Both the position numbers and the translations under genes were made by a program. DNA of 64,000 nucleotides, from the NCBI GenBank assembly GCA_036000965.1, contig DASYUT010000265.1, positions 24,555-88,554 of the forward strand. Reading direction: 5' to 3'. A model generated the notes under the pieces. That model did not search any database. It was not told the origin of the DNA and saw only the letters and a list, made by a program, of their open reading frames with translations. Shown here one piece after another: positions 7,410 to 59,620 of the stretch. Every line of letters starts with the position of its first letter. Positions within the stretch are counted from its first letter, which is position 1. This DNA is from Actinomycetes bacterium. GTDB taxonomy: Bacteria; Actinomycetota; CALGFH01.

Positions 7410-10196
7410 GTGACCTGCGCGAACTGTGGAGAGGTCAACCCCGGTCAGGCGCGGTTCTGCCTCAACTGCGGTGCGCCGCTGGGTGCCGGCGGGCGGTGGC
7501 GCGGCGCCCGCAAGGTGGTGACCGTCGTCTTCAGCGACGTCACCGGCTCGACCGCGCTCGGCGAGCGGCTCGACACCGAGTCGCTCAGCCGGATCATGGC
7601 CCGCTACTTCGACGCGATGCGGACGCTGGTCGAGTGGCACCACGGCGTGGTGCAGAAGTTCGTCGGGGACGCGGTCGTCGCGGTGTTCGGCGTCCCGATC
7701 GTGCGCGAGGACGACGCACTACGGGCCGTCCGGGCCGCCGCAGCCATGCAGGACCACCTTGCGGAGCTGAATGCCGCCCTCGCCCGGGACTGGGGTGTCG
7801 GTCTGAGGATCCGCATCGGGGTCAGCACCGGGGAGGTGATGGTCGGCGACGCGCGCCTCGGCGGCGCGCTGGTGATCGGCGACACGGTCAACCTGGCCAC
7901 CCGGCTCGAGGCGGCGGCCAGGCCTGGGGAGATCCTGCTGGACCGGAGGACCTGGCACCTGGCCCGCGACGCAGTGGTGGTGGTCGAGGTGACGCCCGAG
8001 CAGCTCGCCGGCAGTGGCATCCCCGGCGCTGCCTACCGGCTCATCGACGTCTCGCCCGACGTCCCTGGCCACCTCCGCCGCCAGGACAGCCCGCTGGTCG
8101 GCCGTGACGACGAGCTCCGGCTCTTCGACTGGATCCGCCGACGGAGCACCAGGGAGTCCACCTGCCACCTGCTCACCGTGCTGGGCGCCGCCGGGGTGGG
8201 CAAGTCGCGCCTGGTCGCCGAGGCCGTCGGCGCTGCCGGCAGGCAGGCCACCGCCCTGGTCGGGCACTGCCCCCCCGACGCCGAGGGCAACACCTTCTGG
8301 CCGATCGCCGAGGTCGTCCGTGGGGCGGCCGAGGTCAAGAGCGCCGACTCGCCCGACGAGGCCCAGGGCAAGCTGACCGAGCTGCTCTCCGACGCCCCCG
8401 ACGGGCCACGGGTCGCGGGCCGCATCGGCCGGCTCATCGGCCTGGAGGCGACGCCGCTGCCGGCGGAGGAGACGGGCTGGGCCGTCCGGCGGTTCCTCGA
8501 GGTGCTGGCCAGCCGCAAGACCCTGGTGGCCCGCCTCGACCACCTCGACGGCTGGGAGCGGGCGGTGCTGGAGCGGGGCGCGGTCGTCGGCGAGGTGTTC
8601 GAGCGGGCGGCAGTGGTCGAGCTGTCACCGTCGGACGTCCGACCGGCCGTCCCGGACCACCTGCTCTCGCTCATCAGGAAGGAGCTGCTGCGCTCGGCCC
8701 GGTCCGGGCTGTCCGGCGGGGAGGCGTTCCGGTTCCGCCACCTGCTCGTCCGCGACGCCGCCTACGGCGCCATGCCCAAGCAGGCCAGGGCCGACCTGCA
8801 CGAGCGCTTCGCGGCCTGGCTGGAGCGAACCGTGGGCGAGCGGGTGCGCGAGTACGAGGAGATCATCGGCCACCACCTCGAGCAGGCCTACCGCTACCGC
8901 TCCGAGCTGGGACCGACCGACGCCGGGGCGCGAGCCGTCGCCGCCCGGGCCGCCGGGCAGCTGGCCGCAGCCGGGAACCACGCCTTCGCACGGGCGGACA
9001 TGCCGGCAGCGGCCAACCTTCTCGGCCGCGCCGCCGCGCTGCTCCCGGACACCGACGCGGGGCGCCTGGAGCTGCTTCCGAACCTCGCCCGGGCGCTCAC
9101 CGACAGCGGCAGGTTGTCCCTGGCGGAGGCGACGCTCACGCAGGCGACCGAGCTCGCCCGCGCCACCGGTGACCGCCGCGCCGAGGCCCACGCCGAGCTG
9201 GGGCGGTACTGGCTGCGGTACTACGCCGGGCGCGGAGGCTGGCTCGAGGACACCATGCGTGGCGCGGAGCAGCTCATCCCGGTCTTCGAGCGGCTCGGCG
9301 ACGACGCCGGCCTCGCCAAGACGTGGCGGCTGCTCTCCGAGGTGCACCTGACCCGCCTCCACATCGCCGCCAGCGAGGCGGCGGCGGCGCGCGCCGTCGA
9401 GCACGCCCGGCGGGCCGGAGACGAAAATGCGGAGGCGTCCGGCCTCGGCCACCTCGCCGTCGCCGGGGCATGGGGACGCAGGCCCGTGCCTGACGGCATC
9501 CGTCGCACCGAGGCCATCCTGGCAGAGGCCCGGGGCCGCCGGGACGTCGAGGCCGCCGCGTTGAAGGGGCTTGCCGGCCTGCGGGCGATGAGCGGCGACT
9601 TCGACGCGGCCAGGGAGCTCATGGCCCGCCACCGGGCGATCATCCAGGAGATCGGGCGCAAGCTGGTGCTCGGCGGGAGCGCGCAGATGGCCGCCTACGT
9701 GGAGATGCTGGCCGGCGACGCCCGCGGTGCCGAGCGGGAGCTGCGCCGTGGCTACGAGATCCTGGACTCGGCCAGCGACCGCGCCTACCTGCCGGCCGTG
9801 GCCGCCATGCTCGCCCACGCGCTCGAAGCCCAGGGCCGCTACCAGGAGGCCGAGCGGTATCTCGAGCGAGCCTGGGCCATGGCGGTCAGCAGGCGAACTG
9901 CCAGGCTGCCCACCGGTCGGCGAGCCGTGCGTAGACGGCCTCGTGCTGGCAGGCCGAGTCCTCCCAACGGAACCGGGTCGCCACCCGCCGCCCCGCCGCA
10001 CCGAGTCGCGCCCGCAGCTCGCTGTCGGTCGCCGTCGTGCGCATCGCGTCCGCCAGTGCGGCGACGTCGCCCGGGGCCACCAGGAGCGCGTCCCTCCCGC
10101 CGACCAGGTATTCGCGGAACACGGGAATGTCGGTGGCGATCACGGGGAGACGCGCGGCCATCGCTTCGAGCACCACCAGGCCCCAACCCTCCTTGA
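7410..10196 (+). CDS. Adenylate/guanylate cyclase (class III) with N-terminal zinc ribbon, central AAA/NB-ARC-like ATPase and C-terminal TPR region
   Basis: Zinc ribbon CANCGEVNPGQARFCLNCGAPL. Cyclase motifs VVTVVFSDVTGSTAL, FVGDAVVAVFG and IGDTVNLATRLE, then a P-loop GAAGVGKS and TPR-like repeats. GGAGGG lies 5 nt before the GTG at 7410. The last ~100 aa are low-complexity and overlap the convergent GT gene, so the true C-terminus is uncertain. Confidence 0.75.
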   Translation: MTCANCGEVNPGQARFCLNCGAPLGAGGRWRGARKVVTVVFSDVTGSTALGERLDTESLSRIMARYFDAMRTLVEWHHGVVQKFVGDAVVAVFGVPIVREDDALRAVRAAAAMQDHLAELNAALARDWGVGLRIRIGVSTGEVMVGDARLGGALVIGDTVNLATRLEAAARPGEILLDRRTWHLARDAVVVVEVTPEQLAGSGIPGAAYRLIDVSPDVPGHLRRQDSPLVGRDDELRLFDWIRRRSTRESTCHLLTVLGAAGVGKSRLVAEAVGAAGRQATALVGHCPPDAEGNTFWPIAEVVRGAAEVKSADSPDEAQGKLTELLSDAPDGPRVAGRIGRLIGLEATPLPAEETGWAVRRFLEVLASRKTLVARLDHLDGWERAVLERGAVVGEVFERAAVVELSPSDVRPAVPDHLLSLIRKELLRSARSGLSGGEAFRFRHLLVRDAAYGAMPKQARADLHERFAAWLERTVGERVREYEEIIGHHLEQAYRYRSELGPTDAGARAVAARAAGQLAAAGNHAFARADMPAAANLLGRAAALLPDTDAGRLELLPNLARALTDSGRLSLAEATLTQATELARATGDRRAEAHAELGRYWLRYYAGRGGWLEDTMRGAEQLIPVFERLGDDAGLAKTWRLLSEVHLTRLHIAASEAAAARAVEHARRAGDENAEASGLGHLAVAGAWGRRPVPDGIRRTEAILAEARGRRDVEAAALKGLAGLRAMSGDFDAARELMARHRAIIQEIGRKLVLGGSAQMAAYVEMLAGDARGAERELRRGYEILDSASDRAYLPAVAAMLAHALEAQGRYQEAERYLERAWAMAVSRRTARLPTGRRAVRRRPRAGRPSPPNGTGSPPAAPPHRVAPAARCRSPSCASRPPVRRRRPGPPGARPSRRPGIRGTRECRWRSRGDARPSLRAPPGPNPP

Positions 10197-11121
10197 GGGA
10201 GGGGAACACGAACGCGTCGGCTGCCTGGTACCAGCAGGGAAGCTCCTGGTCCGGGACCGTGCCGAGCAGGACGACGTCCCGGCCCAGCTCGAGTCCTGAC
10301 GCCCGAGCCCGGGTCAGGACGCGGTCGCGGTAGGCGGCGTAGTCCTGGAACGAGTGGCCGCCGACGACCGCGAGCACGGGCGAGGGCTGCAGGGTGCGCC
10401 GCAGCGCGGCCATTGCCTCGATGAGCTCGGCGGCGCCTTTGCGTGGCTCGATGCCGCCGACGGTGAGGAAGAGGAAGCGGCCCTCCGCGCCCACCCTGGC
10501 GCGGAACGGACCTGGGTCGAAGGCCGGCACCCGGGCGAAGCGCTCGGCGTCGACCCCGTTGCGCACGACCTCGGCCGCCACGCCGTACTCCTCCTCGAGC
10601 ACCCGCCGCCACCAGTGGCTCACCACGAGGACGTGGTCGGGCTCGAGGATGGCCCGGCGCTGGCACTCGACCAGCGCCTGCGTGGTGAAGTCGTCGACGT
10701 GGTGGACGGTCCGCACCACCAGCACCGGCGCGCCGAGGTCGCGGACGCGCGCGGCGGCCCGGGCCGAGATGCAGTCCTGGGCGTGGAGGATGCGGGAGGC
10801 GGGCTGCAGGGCGGCCAGCCCTTCGGCGAGGACGTCGACCGACCGGAACACCCGCTCCTCGAGGTCGGGTGCTGGCGGCGGCGTGGGGATGATGGTGTGC
10901 TGGACCGTCGTGGGCCGGAAGAAGCCGGCCTCCGGGTCGCCGAGCGCCACGACGCGCACGGGCATGCCGAGCCGGTGGAGCGCCTCGGCCAGCTGCAGCG
11001 TGTGCACCACACCGCCCCGGGGCCTGGTCGAGTACGTCACCAGGACGACGTCGGCGCTGACCGGGCGCTCCTCCTGCTCCCGACCGGGCCCCGGCCCGCC
11101 CGCCGACGTAACGGGGGCCAC
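9886..11121 (-). CDS. GT4 family glycosyltransferase (MshA/MSMEG_0565-like)
   Basis: The N-terminal domain (VVLVTYSTRPRGGVVHTLQLAEALHRLGMPVRVVAL) and the C-terminal EGWGLVVLEAMAARLPVIATD motif fit GT4. The stop TGA is at 9886. The start is ambiguous: GTG at 11121 or GTG at 11181 inside the tandem repeat. Confidence 0.7.
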   Translation of the reverse strand: MAPVTSAGGPGPGREQEERPVSADVVLVTYSTRPRGGVVHTLQLAEALHRLGMPVRVVALGDPEAGFFRPTTVQHTIIPTPPPAPDLEERVFRSVDVLAEGLAALQPASRILHAQDCISARAAARVRDLGAPVLVVRTVHHVDDFTTQALVECQRRAILEPDHVLVVSHWWRRVLEEEYGVAAEVVRNGVDAERFARVPAFDPGPFRARVGAEGRFLFLTVGGIEPRKGAAELIEAMAALRRTLQPSPVLAVVGGHSFQDYAAYRDRVLTRARASGLELGRDVVLLGTVPDQELPCWYQAADAFVFPSLKEGWGLVVLEAMAARLPVIATDIPVFREYLVGGRDALLVAPGDVAALADAMRTTATDSELRARLGAAGRRVATRFRWEDSACQHEAVYARLADRWAAWQFAC

Positions 11122-11127
11122 CCCCGC

Positions 11128-11274
11128 TGGCCTCACGGGAACCCGCCCGCCGGCGTCACGGGGCCCGCCCGCCGGCGTCACGGGACCCCGCCCGCCGGCG
11201 TCACGGGACCCCGCCCGCCGGCGTCACGGGGCCCCGCCCGCCGGCGTCACGGGGCCCCGCCCGCGGTCTCGGGG
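11128..11274. repeat. 22/23-bp tandem repeat x~6 (ccccgcccgccggcgtcacgggg)
   Basis: Units at 11142, 11164, 11186, 11209 and 11232, plus a partial copy at 11255. The unit is not a multiple of 3. The array spans the fdrA stop codon and the GT 5' region. Confidence 0.8.
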
Positions 11275-12809
11275 CGACGGGCGGCGACGGCGGCGGCCAC
11301 GACCGCGCCGCGGGCCGCCGTCGGCACCACGATGCAGCCGGCGTCCAGCAGCTTCCGGCACTGCTCCCAGCGGCCCTGCGGGTCGCGGTCGGTGCCGAGG
11401 ACGTAGGCGACCACCTGCGGCCCGCCGCGCTGGGCCATCACCTCGGCGCAGGCCGGGGCCAGCACGCCGGCCGGATCGGGATGGACGCCGTGACCGAGGA
11501 CCACGTCGACGAGCACCACTGCCGTGGACGGGTCGCGCCCCTCTCGGAGGATGGGCTCGGTGCGCGCGCCGGGGTCGAGCATCGGGTGTGGGCGGCCCCT
11601 GGTGAACTCCTCCTCGCCGACGTCGAGGCAGATGTGGCCGGCCGGCGGGGCCGGGAGGCCCCAGGCCGGCCGCAGCGGCGTGTTGGAGTGGACGGGCCCG
11701 AGCCGGGCCGACAGCACCACCATCGCCTCGTAGCAGAGGGTGCCGCCGGAGAACACGCCCCGCACCGCACGCCGGCCCGGCGCGAGCCGCGCGCAGGCAC
11801 GCCCGGCCGCCTCCGCGAGCCCGGCCCCGGGGTCGGGGCACGACCTGCCGAGCTTGGCGAGGACGTCGAGCACGCCCCGCTCGGCGGTGGCGGCCGCCGT
11901 CACCCCCCGCCGCTCCGGGATCGGCGCGTCGAGCCCGATCAGGACGGCCACCAGCGGCTTGGTGCCGGCCGTGTCGAGCACGGCCGCGGCCACGTCCTCG
12001 TCGGGCGGCTTGGACACCAGCAGGATCGCCTCGGTGGCCTCGTCGCGCTCGAGGGCCTCGATGGCGAGGCGGGCCATGCGCCCACCGACCTGGCGGGAGA
12101 GGTCGCGGCCGCCGACGCCGATCACGTGGGAGACGCCTGCGCCCCACCGGTCGAGCAGGCTCATGACCTCCTGGGCTCCCGTGCCCGCGGCAGCCACGAT
12201 CCCCACCGGGCCCCGGGCGACCGCGTTGGCAAACCCCAGCCCGATCCCGCCCAGCATGGCCGTGCCAGCGCCCGGGCCCATCACCAGGCGCCCGGCCGCC
12301 TGGGCCCGGGCCTTGAGCGCCGCCTCCTGCTCCACCGGCACGTTGTCGCTGAACAGCAGGACGTGCAGCCCGGCCGACAGCGCCTTGTGAGCCTCGAGCA
12401 CCGCGTAGGGGCCGGGCACGGAGACGACCGCCGTGTTGGCCCCCGGGAGCAGGGCGAGCCCCTCGTCGAGCGTCCTCGGCCGCGGCTCGCGTCCCGCCTG
12501 GCACCCGCGTCCCGCCTGGGGCTCGCGCCCGGGCTCGCCGAGGAGCGCCCGCTCGGCGGTTGCCAGCGCCGCCCCGGCGGCCTCGGCGGAGGCCGCCCGC
12601 ACAGCTAGCACGAGGTCGTTGGCACCGACCGTGGGCAGCTCCCCGGACCCGAAGCCCTCCGACTCGAGCATCTGGAGATTCGCCGGGGTGCCCATCAGCG
12701 CCCCCGCCCACGCCACCCCCGGCGTCTCGAGCATCGCCCGGGAGCCGGCCATCAGCCGGACCGAGTCGAGGTAGGTGGCCGGGTGGACACGGGTGCGCGC
12801 GACCGTCAC
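11247..12809 (-). CDS. fdrA: FdrA family protein (acyl-CoA-synthetase NDP-forming-like; oxamate carbamoyltransferase subunit AllF-like)
   Basis: Collinear similarity to E. coli FdrA throughout: an N-terminus ending YLDSVRLMAGS, then LVMGPGAGTAM, GVSHVIGVGGRDLS, LVSKPP and GRPHPMLDP. The GTG start at 12809 overlaps the upstream ORF's TGA (GTGA). Confidence 0.8.
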   Translation of the reverse strand: MTVARTRVHPATYLDSVRLMAGSRAMLETPGVAWAGALMGTPANLQMLESEGFGSGELPTVGANDLVLAVRAASAEAAGAALATAERALLGEPGREPQAGRGCQAGREPRPRTLDEGLALLPGANTAVVSVPGPYAVLEAHKALSAGLHVLLFSDNVPVEQEAALKARAQAAGRLVMGPGAGTAMLGGIGLGFANAVARGPVGIVAAAGTGAQEVMSLLDRWGAGVSHVIGVGGRDLSRQVGGRMARLAIEALERDEATEAILLVSKPPDEDVAAAVLDTAGTKPLVAVLIGLDAPIPERRGVTAAATAERGVLDVLAKLGRSCPDPGAGLAEAAGRACARLAPGRRAVRGVFSGGTLCYEAMVVLSARLGPVHSNTPLRPAWGLPAPPAGHICLDVGEEEFTRGRPHPMLDPGARTEPILREGRDPSTAVVLVDVVLGHGVHPDPAGVLAPACAEVMAQRGGPQVVAYVLGTDRDPQGRWEQCRKLLDAGCIVVPTAARGAVVAAAVAARRPETAGGAP

Positions 12810-12946
12810 GCGAACTGCCCGTCCCGCAGGTGGCCCTCGGCCTCGTCCGCGGTCATCGCGTTGGCCTGCTGCTCCTCGAACGTGCCAGCTTGATCGGCGC
12901 GGGTCAGGGCGTTGCCGCCCAAGGCCAGGACGACGGTCTGCTTCAT
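12806..12946 (-). CDS. 46-aa ORF resembling the N-terminus of carbamate kinase / amino-acid-kinase family; translationally coupled to fdrA (possible gene remnant)
   Basis: MKQTVVLALGGNALTRADQAGTFEEQQANAMTADEAEGHLRDGQFA* shows the AAK-family N-terminal motif (VV-ALGGNAL). GAGGA lies 10 nt upstream of the ATG at 12946. The stop overlaps the fdrA GTG. Confidence 0.35.
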   Translation of the reverse strand: MKQTVVLALGGNALTRADQAGTFEEQQANAMTADEAEGHLRDGQFA

Positions 12947-13094
12947 GCTGGGCACGTCCTCGTTCCCGCATGGAGGCGCGCACGGTCCGTGGCGACCAGG
13001 CCCGGCCTCTTGATCGACGATAGCGAACGCAGCGTTTAGGATAGTTCACGCAAGGAAGCTGGCACAACGGTTCCACGCCGCTGCTGGAGGCGCG

Positions 13095-13763
13095 ATGATC
13101 CCTGCCATGCCTCCCGACCCTGCGAGCCCCCAGGGCGAGGTCCCGGACGAGGTCGTGCGCCGCTGGCGTGCTGCCGAGGAGCAGCTCTACCCGGTCGTCA
13201 TGACCCGGCCCGACCTCTACGAGCGCAGCATCCAGCTCGTGCGGGCCGTGGCCGACGAGCTGCGGCCGCTCACCACCCCGGCGGCGCTGCTGGCGGCGTA
13301 CGCGGGCGCCGCCGAGCTCGTGGCCGTCGTGATCCAGCGACAGGACCTGGCCGTCGAGGGCCTGGACTTCGGGCTCGCGACCGACGCCGCGTTCAGCCTG
13401 CGCTACCGCGAGGTCCTTGGCGAGGTCGCCCGGGAGCAGGCCATGGAGCGGGTCCGGGCGGCCAGGGAGCGGGGCGACGAGTGGGTGCTCCTGCACGAGA
13501 GCGGCACGCTCGCCCACGCACCGGCGGTGCCCTACCGCCGACTCGAGATGCGCCTCCGGGACGGCGCCGGCCTGCACATGTTCGTCCAGCAGGACCCGGC
13601 CACGGCCGGGCCGCTGTACGGGGTCGAGGCGGTGCAGCTCGACCCCCACACCGGCGACTGGCTGACCGACGCGGCCCCCTGGGCGCGGTCCGAGACGTTC
13701 GGCCAGCCGGAGCCCTGGCGGCGGCTGGCCGAGGAGCTGCGCGGGCGCCGGCAGAACCCTTGA
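13095..13763 (+). CDS. Hypothetical protein
   Basis: Clean 222-aa ORF with GGAGG 5 nt before the ATG. The composition is not an antisense artefact. It is the first gene of the plus-strand cassette ahead of the amidohydrolase, rSAM-like and GNAT genes. Confidence 0.5.
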   Translation: MIPAMPPDPASPQGEVPDEVVRRWRAAEEQLYPVVMTRPDLYERSIQLVRAVADELRPLTTPAALLAAYAGAAELVAVVIQRQDLAVEGLDFGLATDAAFSLRYREVLGEVAREQAMERVRAARERGDEWVLLHESGTLAHAPAVPYRRLEMRLRDGAGLHMFVQQDPATAGPLYGVEAVQLDPHTGDWLTDAAPWARSETFGQPEPWRRLAEELRGRRQNP

Positions 13764-13860
13764 CACCCTCCGCACCAAGCCCCCGACACCCTCCGCACCA
13801 ACCCTTGACACACCTTCCGCACCGTGGAAGATTTCCTTTAGTAGATGCCACTCTTCCAAA
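13759..13860 (+). promoter_or_regulatory. Three ~22-bp direct repeats each carrying TTGACA/CCGACA, followed by an AT-richer stretch; candidate promoter for the amidohydrolase/rSAM/GNAT genes
   Basis: ccTTGACAccctccgcaccaagccc, ccgacaccctccgcaccaaccc and TTGACAcaccttccgcaccgtgg, then gaagatttcctttagtagatg. Confidence 0.4.
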
Positions 13861-17506: not shown

Positions 17507-18301
17507 ATGATGGCCAGCACCGGCTTCCTCGACCTCCCGCCCCGCAGTTCCAAGCCTCGACAGGCGGGGGTCACCCACGTGCTCGACAAGGGCCTCCCCC
17601 TGGCCGAGATGGAGCCGCTCCTGGCCATCCTCGCCGACCACGTCGACCTGTGGAAGCTGGGCTGGGGGACCGCGTACCTCGACCCGACCGTCGGTGACAA
17701 GGTCGCCCTGCTGGCCCGGCACGACGTGCGCGCCTGCGTCGGCGGGACCCTCCTCGAGGTCGCCTGGGCCCAGGGCAAGGCCGAGGCCTGCCTGGCCTGG
17801 GCCTCCGGGCTCGACTTCCCCTGCGTGGAGGTGTCCAACGGCGCGGTCGGCATGCCGCTGGCCGAGAAGCGACGGCTGATCGCCGAGGCCGCCGAGGGCT
17901 TCACGGTCCTGGCCGAGGTCGGCGCGAAGGACCCGAGCGTCCCGGTCTCGCCCTCCGGCTGGGCCGCGGAGATGCTCGGCGACCTCGAGGCCGGGGCGTC
18001 CTGGGCGGTGGCCGAGGGGCGCGAGAGCGGCACCGTCGGCCTGTACCGGCCGGACGGCTCGGTACGGGAGGACGTGGTCGACGCCGTGGTGGGCGCCGTC
18101 GGCCTGCGCCCGCTGCTCTTCGAGGCCCCGGCAAAGCACCAGCAGGCCTGGCTCATCCGCCGCTTCGGCTCCGACGTGAGCCTCGGCAACGTGCCGGCCC
18201 CGGAGGTGCTCGGCCTGGAGACGCTCCGCCTCGGGCTGCGGGCCGACACGATCGAGCTGGCGCGCTCGCGCGGCACGGCCATGAGCGCGGCGGGGCCGTG
18301 A
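17507..18301 (+). CDS. comA: Phosphosulfolactate synthase (ComA) family protein
   Basis: GVTHVLDKG...HVDLWKLGWGTAYL is the ComA family pattern (GWGTS/A). First gene of a tightly coupled operon. Confidence 0.75.
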   Translation: MMASTGFLDLPPRSSKPRQAGVTHVLDKGLPLAEMEPLLAILADHVDLWKLGWGTAYLDPTVGDKVALLARHDVRACVGGTLLEVAWAQGKAEACLAWASGLDFPCVEVSNGAVGMPLAEKRRLIAEAAEGFTVLAEVGAKDPSVPVSPSGWAAEMLGDLEAGASWAVAEGRESGTVGLYRPDGSVREDVVDAVVGAVGLRPLLFEAPAKHQQAWLIRRFGSDVSLGNVPAPEVLGLETLRLGLRADTIELARSRGTAMSAAGP

Positions 18302-19182
18302 GGAACCTCGTCCCCGGCCGCTACCGCGACGTGTCGGTCGCCAGCGTCGACGGCAGCCTCAGCGCCGAGAGCCTCGGGCGCCACTTCCTCGGCCGCGAGG
18401 CCTACCGCCGCACCCGCTACGTGATCGCCCGCCGGGGCCCCGAGGCGGCCCTGGTCCAGGTGACCAAGGCGTCCGAGGTACCGCTGCTCTCGCCGATCGT
18501 CGGCGTCCGGGTGCTCGCCCCACCCGGCGAGTGCGCCGTGGTCGACGCCCCCGAGGTCGACACCGGCGTCCCCTCCCAGCTCGCGCGGGCCGCCCGCGAG
18601 CTGGCCCCCGGCGCCCGCTGCGTGGTCGTGCAGGGGCGCTACCGCCACGTCAGCTTCATCCTCGACCCCGACCCGATCCGGGTCCGCGTGGTCGAGGTCG
18701 TCCCACCGGAGCCGCCGAAGCTGCTGGACCAGGCGCGCCGGGTGCTGGAGATGGCCGAGGACCTCCCCCCGATCGAGCTGCTCCCGGTCCTCACCGACCT
18801 CACCGAGCTGGCCGGGCGGCGGCCCGCCCGGCGCTACCTGCTCCCGTGCCGGGGCTCGGGCATCCGCATCGACGGCGCCGAGACCAGGTTCCTGGACGAG
18901 CGGCCCGCCAGGGAGGAGTGGGTGCTCCTCGGCTGCACCCGCTCCCGCGAGCTGCACGGATGGTTCTACGGAGAGGAGGCCGAGGTGGTGGACATGTGCC
19001 CCCGCCGGCTGGCCGGACCGGCCGGGACCACCCCCGTGCTCACCAAGTGCTGCCTGCTCGAGGAGCACGTCGAGCGCGACGGCGCCCGCGTGACCGTCCC
19101 CTGGGGCGCCTCGCTCGACCTCGTGCGCGAGGGGCTGGCCCGCATCGCGGCCATGGCGGAGCCGGCATGGTCGCCCGCCTGA
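18298..19182 (+). CDS. Hypothetical protein
   Basis: 294-aa ORF whose GTG start overlaps the comA stop (GTGA). No recognisable family. Confidence 0.45.
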   Translation: MRNLVPGRYRDVSVASVDGSLSAESLGRHFLGREAYRRTRYVIARRGPEAALVQVTKASEVPLLSPIVGVRVLAPPGECAVVDAPEVDTGVPSQLARAARELAPGARCVVVQGRYRHVSFILDPDPIRVRVVEVVPPEPPKLLDQARRVLEMAEDLPPIELLPVLTDLTELAGRRPARRYLLPCRGSGIRIDGAETRFLDERPAREEWVLLGCTRSRELHGWFYGEEAEVVDMCPRRLAGPAGTTPVLTKCCLLEEHVERDGARVTVPWGASLDLVREGLARIAAMAEPAWSPA

Positions 19183-20543
19183 GCGACTCCGAGCTGTACG
19201 CCCACCTGTGGGGGACCGGCGAGCTGCGCGCGGTGTTCGAGGAGCGCGCCCGCCTGCAGTCCTGGCTCGACATCCTGGCCGCCCTGGCCCAGGCCCAGGC
19301 CGAGCTTGGCATCATCCCGGCCGAGGCCGCCGCGGCCGTCGCCAGGTCGGCGTCGGTGGACCGGCTCGACCTGGCGTTCGTGGCCGCCGAGACCCGGCGG
19401 ACCTCGCACTCCACGCTCGGGATCATCCGCGGCCTGGAGCGCGTGCTGCCACCCGAGGCGCACGAGTACGTCTACTACGGCGCGACCGTCCAGGACGTCA
19501 CCGACACCTGGACGGCGCTCGCGGTACGCAGGGTCGGCGCGGTCGCCTGGCGCGACCTGCGCCGGATCCGGGCCCACCTGGTCGACCTGGCGGAGCGGCA
19601 CCGCGACACGGTCATGGCCGGGCGCACGCACGGGCAGCCGGGCGCCGCGGTCACGTTCGGGTTCAAGGCCGCCTCCTGGGCCGACGAGGTCCACCGGCAC
19701 GTCGCCCGCCTGCGCGAGGGCGCGTCCCGCTGGCTGGTCGGCCAGCTCGCCGGCGCGGTGGGGACGGTGGCGTTCTTCGGCGACCAGGGGCTCGCCCTGC
19801 GGGCCCGCTTCTGCGCCCGCCTGGGGCTCGCCGACCCGGGCATCTCCTGGCTCACCTCCCGCGACCGCCTGGCCGAGTTCGGCCACCTCCTGGCCATGGT
19901 CACGGCCACCCTGGCCCGGATCGGGACCGAGGTGTACGAGCTGCAGCGGCCCGAGATCGGCGAGCTGCGCGAGCCGGCCGGGCACGAGGCGGTCGGGAGC
20001 ATCACCATGCCCCACAAGCGCAACCCGGAAGGCGCCGAGCACCTGGCCACCCTCGCCCGCCTGGTCAGGGCCCAGTCCGGCGTCCTGACCGAGAGCATGG
20101 TGGCCGAGCACGAGCGCGACGGGCGGGCCTGGAAGGCGGAGTGGCTGGCGTTCCCCGAGGCCTGCCTGCTCGCGGGCGCCGCCCTCGAGCAGGCCGAGCG
20201 GCTGCTGGCCGGGCTCGAGGTGAACACCAGGGCGATGGCGGCCAACCTGGCCGCCGGGCGTGGCTACCTCGCTTCCGAGCAGGTCCTGGCCATGCTGGCG
20301 CCCACGGTCGGCAAGCACCGGGCCCAGGCCCTGCTCCAGGAGGCGCTGCGGGCGGGGTCGGCCCTGGGCCAGCCGCTCGGGGACGCCCTGCTGGCGAGCG
20401 CGGCGCTGCGGCCGCACCTCGACCCCGACGCCCTGCGGCCGCTCCTGGCCGCCCCCGACGCCGGCTCCGCCGCCGCCATGGCCGACGAGGTCGTCCGGCG
20501 GATCCGCGCCGACGGGCAGCGCGAGGCGGGCGGGTGGCCGTGA
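19167..20543 (+). CDS. Aspartase/fumarase-superfamily lyase, adenylosuccinate-lyase-like
   Basis: Signature GSITMPHKRNPEGAEH (GSSxMPxKxNP). The N-terminal region fits the lyase_1 fold. The ATG at 19167 overlaps the upstream gene by 16 nt. Confidence 0.8.
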   Translation: MVARLSDSELYAHLWGTGELRAVFEERARLQSWLDILAALAQAQAELGIIPAEAAAAVARSASVDRLDLAFVAAETRRTSHSTLGIIRGLERVLPPEAHEYVYYGATVQDVTDTWTALAVRRVGAVAWRDLRRIRAHLVDLAERHRDTVMAGRTHGQPGAAVTFGFKAASWADEVHRHVARLREGASRWLVGQLAGAVGTVAFFGDQGLALRARFCARLGLADPGISWLTSRDRLAEFGHLLAMVTATLARIGTEVYELQRPEIGELREPAGHEAVGSITMPHKRNPEGAEHLATLARLVRAQSGVLTESMVAEHERDGRAWKAEWLAFPEACLLAGAALEQAERLLAGLEVNTRAMAANLAAGRGYLASEQVLAMLAPTVGKHRAQALLQEALRAGSALGQPLGDALLASAALRPHLDPDALRPLLAAPDAGSAAAMADEVVRRIRADGQREAGGWP

Positions 20544-21523
20544 ACCCGTCCGGCCGCTTCCGGCTCGCCACGCTCCCGACGCCGCTGGCCCGCGCGGCAC
20601 GGCTCGAGCGGGCGCTGGGCGCCCCGCCGCTGTATGTCAAGCGCGACGACCTCACCGGGTTCGCGCTCGCCGGCAACAAGGCCCGCCAGCTCGAGCTGCT
20701 CGTCGGTGACGCGGTCGGCCGCGGCTGCGACGCGCTCGTCACCGGGGCCGGCCCCGGCTCGAACTTCTGCCAGGCGGCGGCGCTGGCGGCCCGGGTCGCC
20801 GGCCTCGGCTGCGTCCTGGTCATGTACGGCGCCGAGCCGGCCTCGCCCCATCCCAACCTCGCGCTCGCCCGCGCCTCCGGGGCCGAGATCCGCTTCACCG
20901 GCCGCCCGGAGCGCGAGTCCGTCGACCCGGTCCTGGACGAGGCGGCGGCCGAGCTCGAGGCCGAGGGACGCCGGCCGTACCTGGTCCCCCGCGGCGGGTC
21001 CAGCGGTGTCGGCGCGGCCGGCTACGCCCTGGCCGCCACCGAGCTCGCCGCCCAGCTCGACGCCGAGCGGGTCGCGCCAGAGCTGGTCCTGGTCGCCGCC
21101 GGCTCCGGCAGCACCCAGGCCGGCCTGGTCGCCGGCACGGTGGCCGGGGGCCACCCCTGGCGGGTGGCGGGCGCGTCGGTCAGCCGCCCGGTGGCCGAGT
21201 GCGCCGACCAGGTGCTGCGGCTCGCCCGCGCCGCCGCGGCACTCCTCGGCCAGCCGGCCGCGGAGGCCCGGCACGTCGAGGTGTGGGACGCCCGCGGTCC
21301 CGGCTACGGGATCCCCTCCCCGGAAGGCGAGCGGGCCGCCCGGGTGGCCGCCGACACCGAAGGCCTCCTGCTGGACCCGGTGTTCACGGCCAAGGCGCTC
21401 GCCCTCCTGCCCCGTCTCGTGCACGACGGCGTCCGCGGTCCGGTCGTCTTCTGGCACACCGGCGGGACTCCCGGTGCGCTCGCGCACCTGACACGAGGAG
21501 GTGGGCGGTGCGGCAACCGGTGA
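20540..21523 (+). CDS. PLP-dependent enzyme of the ACC deaminase / D-cysteine desulfhydrase family
   Basis: LYVKRDDLTGFALAGNKARQLELL matches the KRDDL...GGNKxRKLE motif. Glycine-rich PLP loop. The GTG start overlaps the upstream stop (GTGA). Confidence 0.8.
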   Translation: MNPSGRFRLATLPTPLARAARLERALGAPPLYVKRDDLTGFALAGNKARQLELLVGDAVGRGCDALVTGAGPGSNFCQAAALAARVAGLGCVLVMYGAEPASPHPNLALARASGAEIRFTGRPERESVDPVLDEAAAELEAEGRRPYLVPRGGSSGVGAAGYALAATELAAQLDAERVAPELVLVAAGSGSTQAGLVAGTVAGGHPWRVAGASVSRPVAECADQVLRLARAAAALLGQPAAEARHVEVWDARGPGYGIPSPEGERAARVAADTEGLLLDPVFTAKALALLPRLVHDGVRGPVVFWHTGGTPGALAHLTRGGGRCGNR

Positions 21524-23007
21524 GCAGGGGGCTGGGGCCGGCGGCGGAGGCGCCCGCCCCGGAGCTGGTCGAGGCCGGCTTCGCCCTCGAGGTGGCCGAC
21601 GCGCCGCTGCTCCACCACGGGCTGAACCTGGCCGACATGGCGCACGTCCTGGACCTGCGCGCCCGCCGGGTGATGCCGGAGGAGCCGGCCCGCCGGCTGC
21701 TCCGGCTCCTGCTCGTCGCCCACCAGACGCCGGCCGCCGAGTTCCCCTACGACCCGGTCCACGGCGAGGTCTACAACTGCCGCGAGCGGTTCTTCGTCGA
21801 GCGGCTCGGCGACGACGCCGGCTGGCTGCACGCCGGGCGGCCCCGGCGCGAGGCCGGCCGGGTGGCGCTCCGGCTGCTCCTGCGGGTCCTCGTGGCCGAG
21901 CTGGTGTCGGACACGGCCGCGTTCGCCCGCGCGGTGGCCGGGCAGGCCGGCGAGCACGCCGAGACCCTCATGCCCGACCAGACCTACCTGCAGCAGGCGC
22001 AGCCGTCCACGTTCGGCCACTACGTGCTCGCCTTCGCCTACCCCGCCCTGCGCGACGCCGAGCGCCTGCTGCAGGGACTCGACTGGGTCGACCGCAGCCC
22101 GGCCGGCGCGGGCTGCGTCAACGGCAGCCGGCTGCTGGCCGACCGGACCCGGCCGGCCGACCTGCTCGGCTTCCCCGCCGTCATCGAGCACACCCGCGAC
22201 GCGATGTGGCAGACCGACGGCCTCGTCGACTTCCTGGCCACGTCGGCCAGCCTCGTCACCAACCAGAGCAAGCTGGCCGAGGACCTCGAGATCTGGGACA
22301 GCCAGGAGTTCGACTTCGTCGACCTGGCCGGCCCCTACACCCGGGCCAGCGTGCTCATGCCGCAGAAGCGCAACCCGTACGCGCTGTCCATCGTCCGGGG
22401 CGCGGCCGGGATCCTCATCGGGCGCCTCTCCGGGTTCCTGGCTGTGGTCAAGACGCCGTCGGCACGCAGCGACAACCTGATCTTCGCCTACGGGGAGGTG
22501 CCGCGCTCCCTCGAGCTGGCCGGCAGGATCACCCGCCTGACGACCGGCGTGGTGGCGAGCCTCACCGTGAACCGCGAGCGGATGCGGGAGGTGCTCCTGT
22601 CCGGCTTCTGCCAGGCCACCGACCTGGCCGAGTTCGTCATGCAGGCGTGCGGGGTCGACTACCGCACAGCCTACCTGGTGGTCGGCAGGGCGGTCCGCCA
22701 GGCCAGCCGGCAGGGGCTGCGCGGGATCGACCTGACCGGCGAGCTGCTCGACGCGGCGGCGCGCGAGCAGATCGGCCGGCCGCTCGGGCTCACCGGTCGG
22801 GACCTCGCCGAGGTCCTCGACCCGCGGGCGATCGTGCTGACCCGGCTGGCCCCCGGCGGCGCCGCACCGGAGGTCGTGCGGGGCATGGCCCGCTCCTGCA
22901 CCGAGGCCGCCGACCGGCTCCTCGCCGTGGCCGCCGGGCACGCCGAGCGCTTCCGCCTGGCCGAGGAAGCCCTGCTCAACCAGGCGCGGGAGGTGGCTCG
23001 TGGCTAG
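21508..23007 (+). CDS. Aspartase/fumarase-superfamily lyase, argininosuccinate-lyase-like
   Basis: SVLMPQKRNPYALSIVRG is the ArgH-type signature. GAGGAGG lies 6 nt before the GTG at 21508. Confidence 0.8.
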   Translation: MRQPVSRGLGPAAEAPAPELVEAGFALEVADAPLLHHGLNLADMAHVLDLRARRVMPEEPARRLLRLLLVAHQTPAAEFPYDPVHGEVYNCRERFFVERLGDDAGWLHAGRPRREAGRVALRLLLRVLVAELVSDTAAFARAVAGQAGEHAETLMPDQTYLQQAQPSTFGHYVLAFAYPALRDAERLLQGLDWVDRSPAGAGCVNGSRLLADRTRPADLLGFPAVIEHTRDAMWQTDGLVDFLATSASLVTNQSKLAEDLEIWDSQEFDFVDLAGPYTRASVLMPQKRNPYALSIVRGAAGILIGRLSGFLAVVKTPSARSDNLIFAYGEVPRSLELAGRITRLTTGVVASLTVNRERMREVLLSGFCQATDLAEFVMQACGVDYRTAYLVVGRAVRQASRQGLRGIDLTGELLDAAAREQIGRPLGLTGRDLAEVLDPRAIVLTRLAPGGAAPEVVRGMARSCTEAADRLLAVAAGHAERFRLAEEALLNQAREVARG

Positions 23008-23090
23008 GCGGGTCCGCCACGACGAACTCGAGCTCCGGCTGCCCGCGCAGCCGGTACGCCCCTTCCCAGCGGGCCGTCACCTCCATCACC

Positions 23091-24527
23091 GTGAACGCTA
23101 ACCCCCCGCCCCGGCGCGATCCAGTCCTGCTCCCCGGCGAGGTGCGGGTCGTCAACCTCGGCCTGCCGGTGTTCGGCGACGCGGTCCGGGCCCAGGGGGC
23201 GGCCGCGGTCGACGTCGACTGGCGCATCCCCGCCGGCGGCCACCCGGAGCTGGTCGCCGCCCTGGAGCGGCTCTGCGGGCCCCTCTCGGGCCGGGTGGAG
23301 ACGGCCAACCGCGAGGTGGTCCGCCGGCTCGACGAGGGGACGCCGGCCCTGACCGGGATCGCCCCGGCCGCCGAGGTGGTCCCGGGGGTGGACGCCCGGA
23401 CCGTCCTGCACTGCGGCCCTCCCCTGGACTGGGAGGACTTCTGCGACCCGCTGCGCCGCTCGGTCCGGGCCTCGGTGCTGGCCGAGGGATGGGCGTCCTC
23501 GCCGGAGGATGCCGAGCGGCTGGTGGCCACGGGACGCGTGCGGCTCGAGCCGGCCAACCATCACGCCGCGGTCGTGCCGATGGCGACCACCCTCGGCCCC
23601 TCCGCTCCCGTGTTCGTGGTCGAGAACCACCAGGGCGGGAACCGCGCGTTCTCCGGGCTCAACCAGGGGCCGGGCGCGACGGCCTGGTTCGGGATGGACG
23701 CTCCAGCGGCGGTCGAGCGGCTGGTCTGGCTGCGCGACGTCGCCGCCCCGGTGCTGGGCGCCACGATCGCCGGGACCGGGCCGGTCGAGCTGTTCCCGCT
23801 GGTCGCCCAGGGCCTACAGATGGGCGACGACGTCCACATGCGGACGCAGGCGACCACGAACCTGCTCCTGCGCCACCTGCTCCCGCAGCTCGTGGCGGTC
23901 GACTCCCCGCTCCTGGTCGAGGTGGCCCGGTTCCTGTCAGGCAACCACCTGTTCTTCCTGAACCTGGCCATGGCCGCGGCCAAGGCGGTCGCCGACTGGG
24001 CCGGCCAGGTCGCGGACTCGAGCGTGGTGGTGGGGATGGCCCGCAACGGCACCACGTTCGGCATCCGGCTGGCCGGCACCGACGGCGACGCCTGGTTCGT
24101 CGCCCCCGCCCCGCCGGTCGGCCGGGCGCTCTACTACCCGGGGTTCGGCCCGGAGGTGAGCGCGCCCGACATCGGCGACAGCGCGGTCCTCGAGCTGGTC
24201 GGGCTGGGCGGGCCGGCGGCGGCCGCGTCCCCGGCGGTGGCCGCCTTCCTGGGCGGGACGATGGCCGACGCGGCGGCGGCCACCGAGGCTGCGGACCATG
24301 TCTGCGCCGGCCGGAGCAGCCGCTTCAAGCTCCCGCTGCTCGACTTCCGTGGCGCCCCGATCGGCGTGGACGTGCGCAAGGCGGTGGAGCTCGAGATCAC
24401 CCCGTCGATCAACACCGGCATCCTCCACGCCACCGCAGGGACCGGCCAGGTCGGCGCCGGGATCGCGGAGGCGCCGATCGAGTGCTTCCGCCGGGCGCTG
24501 CTCGCCCTCGACGAGCGGCTGCGGTGA
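23091..24527 (+). CDS. ylbE: YlbE family protein (DUF1116; oxamate carbamoyltransferase subunit AllG-like)
   Basis: Strong collinear similarity to E. coli YlbE, including VFVVENHQGGNRAFSGLNQG and FFLNLAMAAAKA. The start is uncertain (GTG at 23091 or at 23142). Confidence 0.75.
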   Translation: MNANPPPRRDPVLLPGEVRVVNLGLPVFGDAVRAQGAAAVDVDWRIPAGGHPELVAALERLCGPLSGRVETANREVVRRLDEGTPALTGIAPAAEVVPGVDARTVLHCGPPLDWEDFCDPLRRSVRASVLAEGWASSPEDAERLVATGRVRLEPANHHAAVVPMATTLGPSAPVFVVENHQGGNRAFSGLNQGPGATAWFGMDAPAAVERLVWLRDVAAPVLGATIAGTGPVELFPLVAQGLQMGDDVHMRTQATTNLLLRHLLPQLVAVDSPLLVEVARFLSGNHLFFLNLAMAAAKAVADWAGQVADSSVVVGMARNGTTFGIRLAGTDGDAWFVAPAPPVGRALYYPGFGPEVSAPDIGDSAVLELVGLGGPAAAASPAVAAFLGGTMADAAAATEAADHVCAGRSSRFKLPLLDFRGAPIGVDVRKAVELEITPSINTGILHATAGTGQVGAGIAEAPIECFRRALLALDERLR

Positions 24528-24535
24528 CCAGGGCG

Positions 24536-24675
24536 GGCGCACCGGGAGCCCTGGCCCGGCTGGTGGGCGCGCCAGGCCGCACCGCAGGCGCACCGGGAGC
24601 CGCACCTGGGAGGGAGGTGCGCCGCTGCGCAGGCTGGGCGTACCAGGAGCCGCACGTGGGGAGGCGGGTGCGCCG
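24536..24675. repeat. Direct repeats (gcgcaccgggagcc...gggaggNggtgcgccg) x3 between ylbE and ylbF
   Basis: Copies at 24536, 24589 and 24638, each containing a GGGAGG-like element. Confidence 0.5.
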
Positions 24676-25446
24676 GTGAGGGCCCTCCTGGCCGGCGCGG
24701 CGGCGGCCCGCGCCCTGGCTCCCCGGGGGGACGGGGTGGTCGTGGCCTGGTTCCCGAAGGCGACCTACGTCCGGATGCCGGGAGGGCTCCTGGCCCTGAC
24801 CGCCCCGGCCGTGCCCCCAGGACCGCTGCACATGGTCCTCGACGCGCCGCTGGCGGCACGGCCGGGAGCGCCGGTGACCCGGTCGGGGAACCGGCTCCTG
24901 GTGGGCCCGGCCTGCGTCGAGCTGCACGGCGTCCGGACGTGGGCCGGGCCGCTGCCAAGCCCCGTTGAGGTGCGCCGCAGCGCCGGGCTGGTGATCGAGG
25001 CGGCGTCGGGGACGGCGGCCGGTTCGGCCCTGCTCGCCCACCCGTACCGGGAGCCGGCCCTGCACGCGCTCGAGCGCCTGCGCGCGGAAGACCTGGCCGG
25101 GGCGGTCGGGCTGCTTGCCGGCCTCGGGCCCGGGCTCACCCCGGCGGGCGACGACGCCCTGGCCGGCATGCTGCTGGCCCGGCGGGCGCTCGACGGCCCT
25201 GGCGCCGAGGCCCGGCTCCGGTCGGCGCTCAGGGCCGCCAGGACCAGCGCGTTGAGCCTGGCGTTCCTTGGCTGCGCCGCCGCCGGGCAGTCCATCGACC
25301 CGGTGCACCAGCTCCTCGGGGCCGCCGCGCGGCGGGACCCCGGGACGGCGGTGACGGCGGCCAGGGCCCTCGCAGAAGTCGGCGCCTCGTCGGGCGCCGA
25401 CTTCTGCTTCGGGCTGCTGGCCGTCCTGCCGGCCGGCGCTGGGTAG
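24676..25446 (+). CDS. ylbF: YlbF family protein (DUF2877; AllH-like)
   Basis: GLGPGLTPAGDDALAGMLLA matches the DUF2877 GxGxGLTPxGDD motif. GTG at 24676. Confidence 0.6.
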   Translation: MRALLAGAAAARALAPRGDGVVVAWFPKATYVRMPGGLLALTAPAVPPGPLHMVLDAPLAARPGAPVTRSGNRLLVGPACVELHGVRTWAGPLPSPVEVRRSAGLVIEAASGTAAGSALLAHPYREPALHALERLRAEDLAGAVGLLAGLGPGLTPAGDDALAGMLLARRALDGPGAEARLRSALRAARTSALSLAFLGCAAAGQSIDPVHQLLGAAARRDPGTAVTAARALAEVGASSGADFCFGLLAVLPAGAG

Positions 25447-27625: not shown

Positions 27626-27690
27626 CGGCAGCTGGTACATTCGACAGTTGGTACATGTGCGACAGTTGGCACACGTGCGACAGCTAATTC
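27626..27690. promoter_or_regulatory. 18-bp tandem repeats (cgacagttggtacatgtg x~3.5) in the divergent promoter between the oxidoreductase operon and the XRE regulator: candidate operator
   Basis: ggcagctggtacattcga, cagttggtacatgtgcga, cagttggcacacgtgcga, cagctaattcacc. Each carries an ACATGT/ACACGT palindromic core. The region is locally AT-richer. Confidence 0.55.
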
Positions 27691-27693
27691 ACC

Positions 27694-41379: not shown

Positions 41380-41395
41380 CTTTCTGTCGCGGCCG

Positions 41396-42637: not shown

Positions 42638-42732
42638 CCCCCTCCTCTTCCGCAGGCCAGACAGCGGCCTTCCACCGAGGCCGAGCCGCTGAGGCCAAAG
42701 CATGACGGGAGAGCAAGCACCCAGCAAGAGCA

Positions 42733-59471: not shown

Positions 59472-59620
59472 GTCCAGTTCCTCCTCTGGCTCCCAGTGGT
59501 GACGAGGCCGGCAGGCGGCATTGTCGTCGAAGCGGGACGTCGGGCGGGCCCTCCTGCCTAGCCGGCCCAGCCGCTCATCGGTCGCCCGCTGGCCGTCGAG
59601 CTCCGCGGGCGGGCTCGAGG

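Follow-up and report, generated by a model that had tools for sequence, protein, structure and literature searches.

What is a 46-codon open reading frame (ORF) doing directly upstream of fdrA in an actinobacterial genome, its stop codon overlapping the fdrA start? The locus lies in a 64,000-nucleotide stretch of contig DASYUT010000265.1 (positions 24,555 to 88,554 of the forward strand; assembly GCA_036000965.1, Actinomycetes bacterium), which is referred to throughout as the window. A preliminary description, made from the letters alone, had suggested that the ORF is either a decayed carbamate kinase (CK) gene serving as a coupling leader peptide or a genuine micro-ORF. Comparison with related loci leaves us almost certain that this ORF, here called the stub, is what remains of a CK gene of the arcC/allK type. 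On balance we also lean towards the fuller statement that it is a CK remnant which probably still works as a coupling ORF feeding fdrA.

The 46-codon ORF descends from a carbamate kinase gene

The stub comprises 46 sense codons on the minus strand (MKQTVVLALGGNALTRADQAGTFEEQQANAMTADEAEGHLRDGQFA), starting with an ATG at 12946-12944 and followed by a TGA at 12808-12806. The GTG of fdrA occupies 12809-12807, giving a GTGA with a stop/start overlap of 4 nucleotides (nt), and a GAGGA lies 10 nt before the stub ATG; both this overlap and the separate ribosome-binding site had been correctly described beforehand. The stub thus has the marks of a leader ORF, namely a ribosome-binding site and start codon of its own, an open frame, and a stop codon overlapping the downstream start. 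In existing annotation it appears at NCBI as hypothetical protein VG276_23185 and at JGI as 'carbamate kinase'.

A Pfam scan of the 46-aa peptide gave zero matches even at E <= 10. Because the peptide is too short for Pfam, we turned to NCBIfam, the PDB and a custom profile instead. Its best PDB matches in a phmmer search were carbamate kinases (E 0.005-0.04), with residues 3-33 aligned on CK residues 3-36. NCBIfam returned four carbamate kinase models and nothing else (E 4e-5 to 4e-3), with 17-23 bits against cutoffs of 266-416 and with model positions 1-34/38 alone matched. A profile built from 57 CKs that adjoin fdrA homologs matched residues 1-31 with E 9e-10. The proposed similarity to CK is therefore statistically supported by phmmer, NCBIfam and the 57-CK profile alike. 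By the curated cutoff over the full-length fold of ~310 aa (NCBIfam TIGR00746/NF009007; Pfam AA_kinase PF00696; EC 2.7.2.2), the stub falls outside the CK family. Weak HMMER alignments placed the tail of the peptide on CK residues ~240-270, hinting at an origin in another region of the enzyme.

Scanning metagenome contigs with the window FdrA uncovered a related locus (L091, contig WNGB01001119.1) whose FdrA is 85% identical and which is collinear with the window on both sides of the stub (window 15057-12857 and 12812-9881), at 86-88% DNA identity. The position of the stub is occupied there by an intact 321-aa ORF (L091:2039-3004), which matches the NCBIfam carbamate kinase model NF009007 with 315 bits (cutoff 266) and Pfam AA_kinase with E 3e-26. 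The upstream sequence (...AACGAGGACGTGCCCAGCATGAAGCAGACC...) is common to the L091 CK gene and the stub, and in L091 the CK TGA overlaps the fdrA ATG. Likewise, ...AACGAGGACGTG(C/G)CCAGCATGAAG... precedes the window stub, the intact L091 gene and a 24-codon remnant in a further locus (L172). A full-length CK gene at exactly the stub's position was found not only in L091 but also in L171, L092, L093, L173 and L175, so that the search of orthologous loci called for by the preliminary description came out in favour of decay.

Gap-tolerant DNA alignment resolves the region into three blocks: L091:2019-2125 corresponds to window 12966-12860 (92% identity), L091:2792-2842 to window 12859-12809 (94%) and L091:3002-3070 to window 12808-12740 (91%). 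Missing between them are L091 2126-2791 (666 nt, 222 codons, CK 30/31 to 251/252) and L091 2843-3001 (159 nt, 53 codons, CK 269-321), the second of which ends right at the CK stop codon. Each deletion preserves the frame, and in total the window lineage has lost 275 of 321 CK codons. The first junction lies at ~12860-12857, inside a GCG common to both sides, and is flanked by the two copies of an imperfect direct repeat, TCGAGGAGCAGCGGG to its left and TCGAGAGAGCAGCAGG to its right; the second joins ...CAGTTCGCG to TGACGG. Short GCG-type microhomology flanks both deletions. The fdrA start is GTG in the window, its G supplied by CK codon 268, and ATG in L091, where the overlap reads ATGA.

Homology by descent is thus documented by a syntenic intact CK gene, by 92-94% DNA identity of the kept segments and by collinear flanks. 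The earlier idea of a decayed carbamate kinase gene holds as to descent. What does not hold is the picture of an N-terminal truncation covering the first 45 residues of a CK: the resemblance is real, as the PDB, NCBIfam and profile matches indicate, but the peptide is a mosaic in which residues 1-30 are CK 1-30 and residues 31-46 are CK 253-268, and the two parts are not contiguous in the enzyme.

Carbamate kinases carry a GGN(A) loop and the motifs HGNGPQVG, GGGGIP, DKD and GSMGPK, which have catalytic roles. ALGGNAL is the sole conserved motif kept by the stub. The other four, whose presence in the relatives was read from their intact CK sequences, lie within the deleted codons 31-252 and 269-321, and the product therefore cannot be a kinase. 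A tblastn search with the L091 CK found no other CK or CK fragment in the 64-kb window.

The window comes from a metagenome-assembled genome (MAG) and has high-GC repeats nearby (its G+C content is 73%), and one might suspect that collapse or chimerism during assembly turned an intact CK gene into such a structure. Such an assembly or sequencing artefact is extremely improbable. Ten contigs, each from a different sample, carry the same stub with its double deletion. They come from three assembly pipelines (ENA, JGI and Logan) and match the window with 99.3-100% DNA identity, and their flanks contain ordinary single-nucleotide polymorphisms (SNPs) and two indel polymorphisms. The junctions, moreover, are clean and in frame, and the window holds no other CK fragments. 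Inside the stub there are 0 population SNPs, a count to be read in the light of a look-up that returns identical proteins only and of ~0.3 SNPs expected in 141 nt.

The stub is accordingly a gene-decay intermediate, an ordinary decaying gene with its start and stop as in the old gene. The proper label for the 46-aa call should be CK pseudogene remnant, neither a kinase nor a new micro-protein.

Carbamate kinase precedes fdrA in most relatives and has been lost repeatedly

We examined ~160 related loci from genome and metagenome collections. In 119 of them fdrA is immediately preceded, on its own strand, by a full-length CK gene, and in 94 of these (79%) the two genes share a 4-nt overlap (ATGA, GTGA or TTGA); 5 have a 1-nt overlap and in 4 the genes abut. 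In the clade of the window (FdrA 70-86% identical), an amidohydrolase gene and a gene of 218-225 aa run in one direction, and CK (319-336 aa), fdrA and a GT4 glycosyltransferase gene run divergently in the other. This layout was seen in L092, L093, L171, L173, L175 and two further contigs, with a 4-nt CK-fdrA overlap in all and, according to the gene tables, a 4-nt overlap between fdrA and the glycosyltransferase gene in most. Given the intact-CK layout of the clade, the window GTGA is inherited from the CK/fdrA junction, and the GAGGA once served the CK gene as its ribosome-binding site. Three longer FdrA homologs (P0020, P0035 and P0028) were considered as in-frame CK-FdrA fusions and rejected, their extensions being C-terminal or not CK-like.

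Erosion of the kinase gene was not confined to the window. Among relatives with FdrA at least 85% identical, CK is intact in L091 and L171, a 24-codon ORF replaces it in L172, and none is left in L170. The L172 remnant (L172:2850-2920; MKQSVVLALGGTAAASFRPGRPPA, then a stop) consists of MKQSVVLALGG followed by TAAASFRPGRPPA and the stop codon; CK codons 1-11 are fused in it to the CK 3' end in a shifted frame. Its TGA, 4 nt before the fdrA ATG, arose by a G>A change (GTGGCG in L091 and L171, GTGACG in L172). Since the window and L172 keep different CK pieces, their deletions are independent. L170, the closest relative by FdrA (91%), no longer has any of the stretch from the 5' untranslated region (UTR) to the fdrA GTG. 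Its fdrA shares the GTG start with the window, and the L170 junction does not show passage through a window-like stub or otherwise.

More distant loci extend the picture. L166 has a 132-codon in-frame remnant covering CK profile positions 1-100 and the C-terminus, and L029 has a CK gene with two in-frame internal deletions that remove the GGGGIP/DKD region; both end in a GTGA overlap. In a large clade the ancestral order is HTH-cupin regulator, CK, fdrA. There the regulator TGA overlaps the CK GTG in L102, and ~20-30 nt separate the regulator stop from the CK start in L008 and L047. The clade also has CK-less derivatives. Among these, L001 and L002 carry a 12-codon ORF (MRTVVLAPGNGT, then a stop) made of CK codons 1-10 and the last codons; it bridges the regulator stop and the start of fdrA, overlapping each in an ATGA, and at DNA level it can be aligned with the first 26 nt of the L102 CK gene. 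L119 has a 25-codon ORF (MRIAVVAL...) with the same two overlaps. Others have bridging ORFs of 16 codons (L015, L105, L107) or 11 codons (L009, L100, L109, L020), and comparison of these 11-16-codon ORFs with CK (L009/L100/L020 and L015/L105) gave no convincing DNA similarity. Finally, L003, L006 and L101, of the same clade, have a direct ATGA overlap between regulator and fdrA.

One gene family thereby offers a graded natural series, from intact CK through stubs of 132, 46, 25, 24 and 12 codons to no intervening ORF, and nearly all stubs in it keep an unbroken chain of overlapping frames into fdrA.

Is the stub kept for translational coupling to fdrA?

Termination-reinitiation couples overlapping gene pairs (PMC6728339, PMC10666635), and reinitiation has been reported only for overlaps or very short intergenic distances (PMC10666635). 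Applied to the stub, this mechanism, the likeliest one, would have ribosomes initiate on the old CK start, using the GAGGA, translate the 46 codons, terminate at the UGA and reinitiate on the overlapping fdrA GUG. The stub would then be a sequence-independent ORF for delivering ribosomes to fdrA, and selection on fdrA expression would make erosion keep the frame. The parts that survive are those that would be relevant to fdrA: the CK 5' UTR, the GAGGA and ATG, an open frame, and the stop/start overlap with fdrA. We infer both translation of the stub and a dependence of fdrA translation upon it; the comparative pattern fits a coupling leader, which makes this role plausible. That the stub has been retained because of its coupling to fdrA is a proposition to which we give an even chance.

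The evidence for it comes chiefly from counting across lineages. Two in-frame deletions are expected by chance in 1 case of 9, so that the window taken by itself is weak evidence. Of the six clear CK-derived remnants, five keep the CK start and, in frame with it, the overlapped stop (the window, L166, L029, L001/L002 and L119, but not L172), which gives p ~0.018 in a binomial comparison with 1/3. With the two bridging micro-ORF lineages of unproven CK origin included, the count is seven of eight (p ~0.003). This pattern, read from sequence comparison, suggests that a need for translational coupling shapes the erosion of CK. The purifying selection on fdrA counts in the same direction.

We tentatively propose a general form of this idea, to which we give somewhat less than an even chance: when the upstream CK gene of a pair overlapped at -4 becomes dispensable, the only deletions tolerated would be those keeping its start, frame and overlapped stop, and the gene would shrink towards a minimal ribosome-delivery ORF. 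With the same reservation, the remnants of 132 codons (L166), 46 codons (the window), 25 codons (L119) and 12 codons (L001) would be examples of such coupling-constrained loss, as would the loci of the L003 type, in which fdrA overlaps the regulator directly.

Several observations speak against coupling as the reason for the stub's survival. Apart from the 1 in 9 chance that a single lineage would show two in-frame deletions without selection, the cross-lineage count is small, some remnants are on single MAG or metagenome contigs, and the independence of the events is partly established. L170 keeps an intact fdrA without stub, ribosome-binding site or start codon, and an upstream ORF is thus not indispensable. 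Shine-Dalgarno-like strength upstream of fdrA showed no difference between coupled and uncoupled loci; in the window the anti-Shine-Dalgarno duplex upstream of the GTG reaches -7.0 kcal/mol (GGGACGGG), near the mean over all loci. A 7-bp hairpin that would bury the fdrA GUG is not conserved in L091, and we gave it no weight for this reason; shuffled sequences fold just as well as the region does (z = 0.4).

In L170 itself (L170:3680-3720), the fdrA GTG is preceded, 7 codons upstream and in frame, by an ATG that arose through an A>T change and lies 6 nt after a -10-like box, TATCGT. It is a matter of speculation that L170 compensates through this new ATG near the box, and equally speculative that its fdrA is expressed from a leaderless mRNA.

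A neutral account would have a dispensable CK deleted piecemeal, the stub being a transient pseudogene fragment without a role, in frame by luck and bound to vanish in time, as it did in L170. CK has indeed been lost repeatedly and to differing extents (24 codons left in L172, none in L170, a regulator-linked clade without CK), two in-frame deletions have a 1 in 9 chance, and internal deletions are what one would expect anyway if those hitting the promoter or fdrA are purged. Derived GC>AT third-position changes are also somewhat denser in the stub (3/32) than in fdrA (13/303), the direction of relaxed constraint, at a non-significant p = 0.19. Such luck is harder to credit across lineages: the frame is kept to the overlapped stop in five of six clear remnants (p ~0.02), the frame-shifted L172 acquired a stop codon at a distance of only 4 nt from the fdrA ATG, and no CK-less locus of the regulator clade shows a break in the overlapping ORFs that lead into fdrA. 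Under strict neutrality, moreover, 0 nonsynonymous against at least 5 synonymous changes in the stub since the L091 split would require deletions no older than roughly the last fifth of the branch. We regard the neutral account as a serious contender that nonetheless commands a clear minority of our confidence.

Probably recent deletions and the question of a functional peptide

The substitutions in the stub bear on its age. Polarised with L091, L092 and L093, they amount to at least 5 synonymous changes (codons 9, 18, 19, 20 and 21) and 0 nonsynonymous changes since the L091 split. Stub and L091 CK differ at 7 synonymous and 3 nonsynonymous codons, and all 3 nonsynonymous differences arose on the L091 side; in these figures change before and after the deletions is inseparable. 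At a synonymous change of ~0.14 per site, the ~100 nonsynonymous sites of the stub would have given ~14 amino-acid changes had it been neutral along the entire branch. The 0 observed means either that the deletions are recent (last ~fifth of the branch) or that the peptide is constrained. We favour recency, because the remnants of relatives keep unrelated CK pieces and no homologous micro-protein is found elsewhere. If the deletions are recent, the loss in L170 is an independent event.

This also disposes us against a functional micro-protein, a peptide with a role of its own such as a small subunit or regulator of AllF/G/H, which would account for the absence of amino-acid change since the L091 divergence beside at least 5 synonymous changes, and for the identity of the peptide in 10 population contigs (found by a look-up that returns identical proteins only). 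A recent deletion from a conserved N-terminus explains the same zero. A search of 5.8 billion proteins returned the peptide alone, and there is thus no family of homologous micro-proteins; the independent remnants keep unrelated CK pieces (12, 24, 25 and 132 codons), and L170 has no stub. The pieces kept in the window, a beta-strand with a glycine loop and a fragment of a helix from elsewhere in a 320-residue fold, are moreover unlikely to fold alone. The genuine micro-ORF offered as the second option in the preliminary description, taken as a micro-protein, consequently finds no support, and we consider it very unlikely.

The position of a short ORF in a 5' leader would also suit an attenuation-type leader peptide, translation of which would respond to a metabolite or charged tRNA and set the level of fdrA transcription. 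A promoter and terminator consensus scan, an Rfam search and an RNA-fold z-score of the leader region turned up nothing: no terminator or antiterminator, no Rfam match and no regulatory codon runs, with a fold z of 0.4. With its origin by a probably recent deletion from an enzyme gene documented as well, we give attenuation hardly any credence.

Comparison with other coupled genes and pseudogenes

The reading we prefer, a CK remnant still coupled to fdrA, has precedents in part. The CK-fdrA pair, with ATGA/GTGA in 79% of cases, and the 4-nt fdrA-glycosyltransferase overlap in relatives resemble the coupled overlapping pairs described before (PMC6728339, PMC10666635); those pairs, however, are functional genes, often encoding subunits of the same complex, whereas the stub is non-functional. 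For mycobacteria, a review (PMC12548453), citing Shell et al. 2015, describes short upstream ORFs proposed to 'deliver' ribosomes to a gene overlapped at -4, with driving its translation as perhaps their sole purpose; the same has been proposed for Mycobacterial Interspersed Repetitive Unit (MIRU) elements, which insert an ORF at -4 spacing. Our stub is comparable in being short, in having its own Shine-Dalgarno sequence, ATG and NUGA overlap, in its actinobacterial host and in a peptide sequence that is presumably irrelevant. It is unlike both the mycobacterial ORFs and MIRU in having arisen by erosion of an already coupled enzyme gene, not de novo or from a mobile element. The same principle underlies synthetic 'bicistronic design' cassettes.

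With ordinary pseudogene remnants the stub shares internal deletions, junction microhomology, lost catalytic motifs and recurrent loss in relatives. It differs in that start, frame and stop are all kept, as they are in most of the independent remnants here, which would not be expected of unconstrained decay.

If the pattern proves true at a larger, phylogenetically controlled scale, translational coupling would be a force that shapes gene decay. Erosion of enzyme genes would then be a natural, recurrent source of coupled leader ORFs, which the loci described here would show at several stages, and some of the short coupled upstream ORFs seen in actinobacterial ribosome profiling would be relics of lost genes.

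fdrA, allG and allH in the window

The gene downstream of the stub is intact (Table 1). FdrA matches Pfam Ligase_CoA (E 9e-30) and CoA_binding (E 2e-5), and it reaches 387 bits with NCBIfam NF004760 'acyl-CoA synthetase FdrA', under the cutoff of 433 for that model. A precomputed PF27530 HMA_AllF_N match exists for a protein identical to it, so that the FdrA-type architecture (HMA_AllF_N, CoA_binding, Ligase_CoA) is present. The protein aligns with other FdrA proteins from residue 1 and is 85-91% identical to its relatives. Ratios of nonsynonymous to synonymous substitution (dN/dS) of 0.19 against L170 and 0.29 against L091 indicate that fdrA is under purifying selection.

Table 1. Positions in the window of the stub, its parts and the associated genes.
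Feature	Position	Strand	Basis
GAGGA Shine-Dalgarno sequence of the stub	12957..12961	-	Sequence; ancestral CK ribosome-binding site
46-codon ORF and TGA, eroded carbamate kinase gene	12806..12946	-	Descent from L091-type intact 321-aa CK
Stub codons 1-30 = CK codons 1-30, beta-1 strand and ALGGNAL glycine loop	12857..12946	-	28/30 residues identical to L091 CK, DNA 92%
Stub codons 31-46 (MTADEAEGHLRDGQFA) = CK codons 253-268	12809..12856	-	15/16 residues identical to L091 CK (MTMDEAEGHLRDGQFA)
GTGA stop/start overlap; deletion junction 2 between 12809 and 12808	12806..12809	-	Sequence and L091 alignment
fdrA/allF, 520 aa and stop, intact	11247..12809	-	Pfam and NCBIfam matches
allG (to 24527) and allH (~24.6 kb to 25446), last two genes of operon	~23004..25446	+	Pfam AllG, AllH

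The partner genes allG (PF06545, E 3e-72) and allH (PF11392, E 3e-21) lie ~10.2 kb from fdrA on the opposite strand. This layout had been pointed out before, under the E. coli names ylbE/ylbF, as a peculiarity of the locus. The arrangement itself stands, and the peculiarity does not: allG/allH occur in the 10-kb flanks of 33 of 80 genome loci, nearly always on the strand opposite fdrA, and since they usually lie kilobases off in relatives, the separation is the norm. No ATG, GTG or TTG was found in frame near 23004, although some allG homologs align from there; the TAG of the preceding lyase gene is at 23005-23007. Homology to allH begins at ~24646.

In E. coli the operon order is allF-allG-allH-allK (fdrA-ylbE-ylbF-ybcF), with AllFGH acting as an oxamic transcarbamylase and AllK as a catabolic carbamate kinase (PMC11326118, PMC9843812). 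The window resembles it in that the AllF, AllG and AllH families are all present and intact, and a CK gene is genetically linked to allF in nearly all of its relatives. The linkage of CK to fdrA assumed in the earlier comparison with E. coli is thus sound, and the order needs correcting: CK lies immediately upstream of allF in window-type loci, and overlaps it, whereas it lies downstream in E. coli. The window differs further in that allG/allH sit on the other strand, kilobases away, without a contiguous allFGHK, and in that its CK has shrunk to 46 codons. It therefore has an AllFGH-type system without a linked CK, both at the locus and within the 64-kb window, and carbamoyl phosphate from the enzyme is presumably not turned to ATP by a linked kinase.

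Oxalurate/oxamate carbamoyltransferase activity has been demonstrated for the E. coli enzyme alone (PMC11326118). In the window, allG and allH close an operon (17507-25446, plus strand) that also encodes a ComA-like protein of the phosphosulfolactate synthase family (PF02679), a DUF7714 protein, two Lyase_1 enzymes of the adenylosuccinate/argininosuccinate lyase-like kind and a PLP-dependent enzyme (PALP). A Pfam scan of the window showed no allantoin genes among the neighbours. Given this non-allantoin context, the substrate of the window AllFGH-type enzyme may be different from that of E. coli. Near the operon are genes for a radical SAM protein, an Amidohydro_2 protein, a GNAT protein and an AIR-synthase-related protein. 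An HTH_3 and Cupin_2 regulator is encoded at window 27688-28446 on the plus strand; its domain architecture is that of the regulator found directly upstream of CK-fdrA in many other lineages.

Repeats and rearrangements around the locus

A 23-nt tandem repeat (CCCGCCCGCCGGCGTCACGGGGC, 7.4 copies, window 11095-11264) extends across the end of fdrA (stop at 11247) and the start region of the GT4 glycosyltransferase ORF (9886-11181, minus strand). The fdrA stop and glycosyltransferase start overlap by 4 nt in L170, L172, L173 and L175, and expansion of the repeat thus separated the two genes in the window. Its copy number is polymorphic, L081 being without 24 nt at 11186-11209. Within fdrA, an 18-nt repeat (2.7 copies, window 12484-12531) encodes a repetitive linker (...QAGRGCQAGREPRP...) and adds to the length of FdrA, which is 520 aa in the window and 513-514 aa in L091 and L172.

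Collinearity with close relatives ends shortly beyond the glycosyltransferase gene (window ~9881). Beyond the break, L091 continues with DNA matching window 58607-59526 and L099 with DNA matching window 40903-42731, and these shifted matches point to rearrangements within the species group.

On the other side of the stub, the divergent 222-aa gene (13095-13763) belongs to no known family. A 23-nt indel polymorphism at its 3' end (window ~13761-13799) occurs in L082, L083 and L090. Between this gene and the stub-fdrA unit lies a perfect 11-bp palindrome (AACGCTGCGTT, window 13026-13036), which is also present in L091, L170 and L172, a conservation that is uninformative at such low divergence; the palindrome could be a candidate operator.

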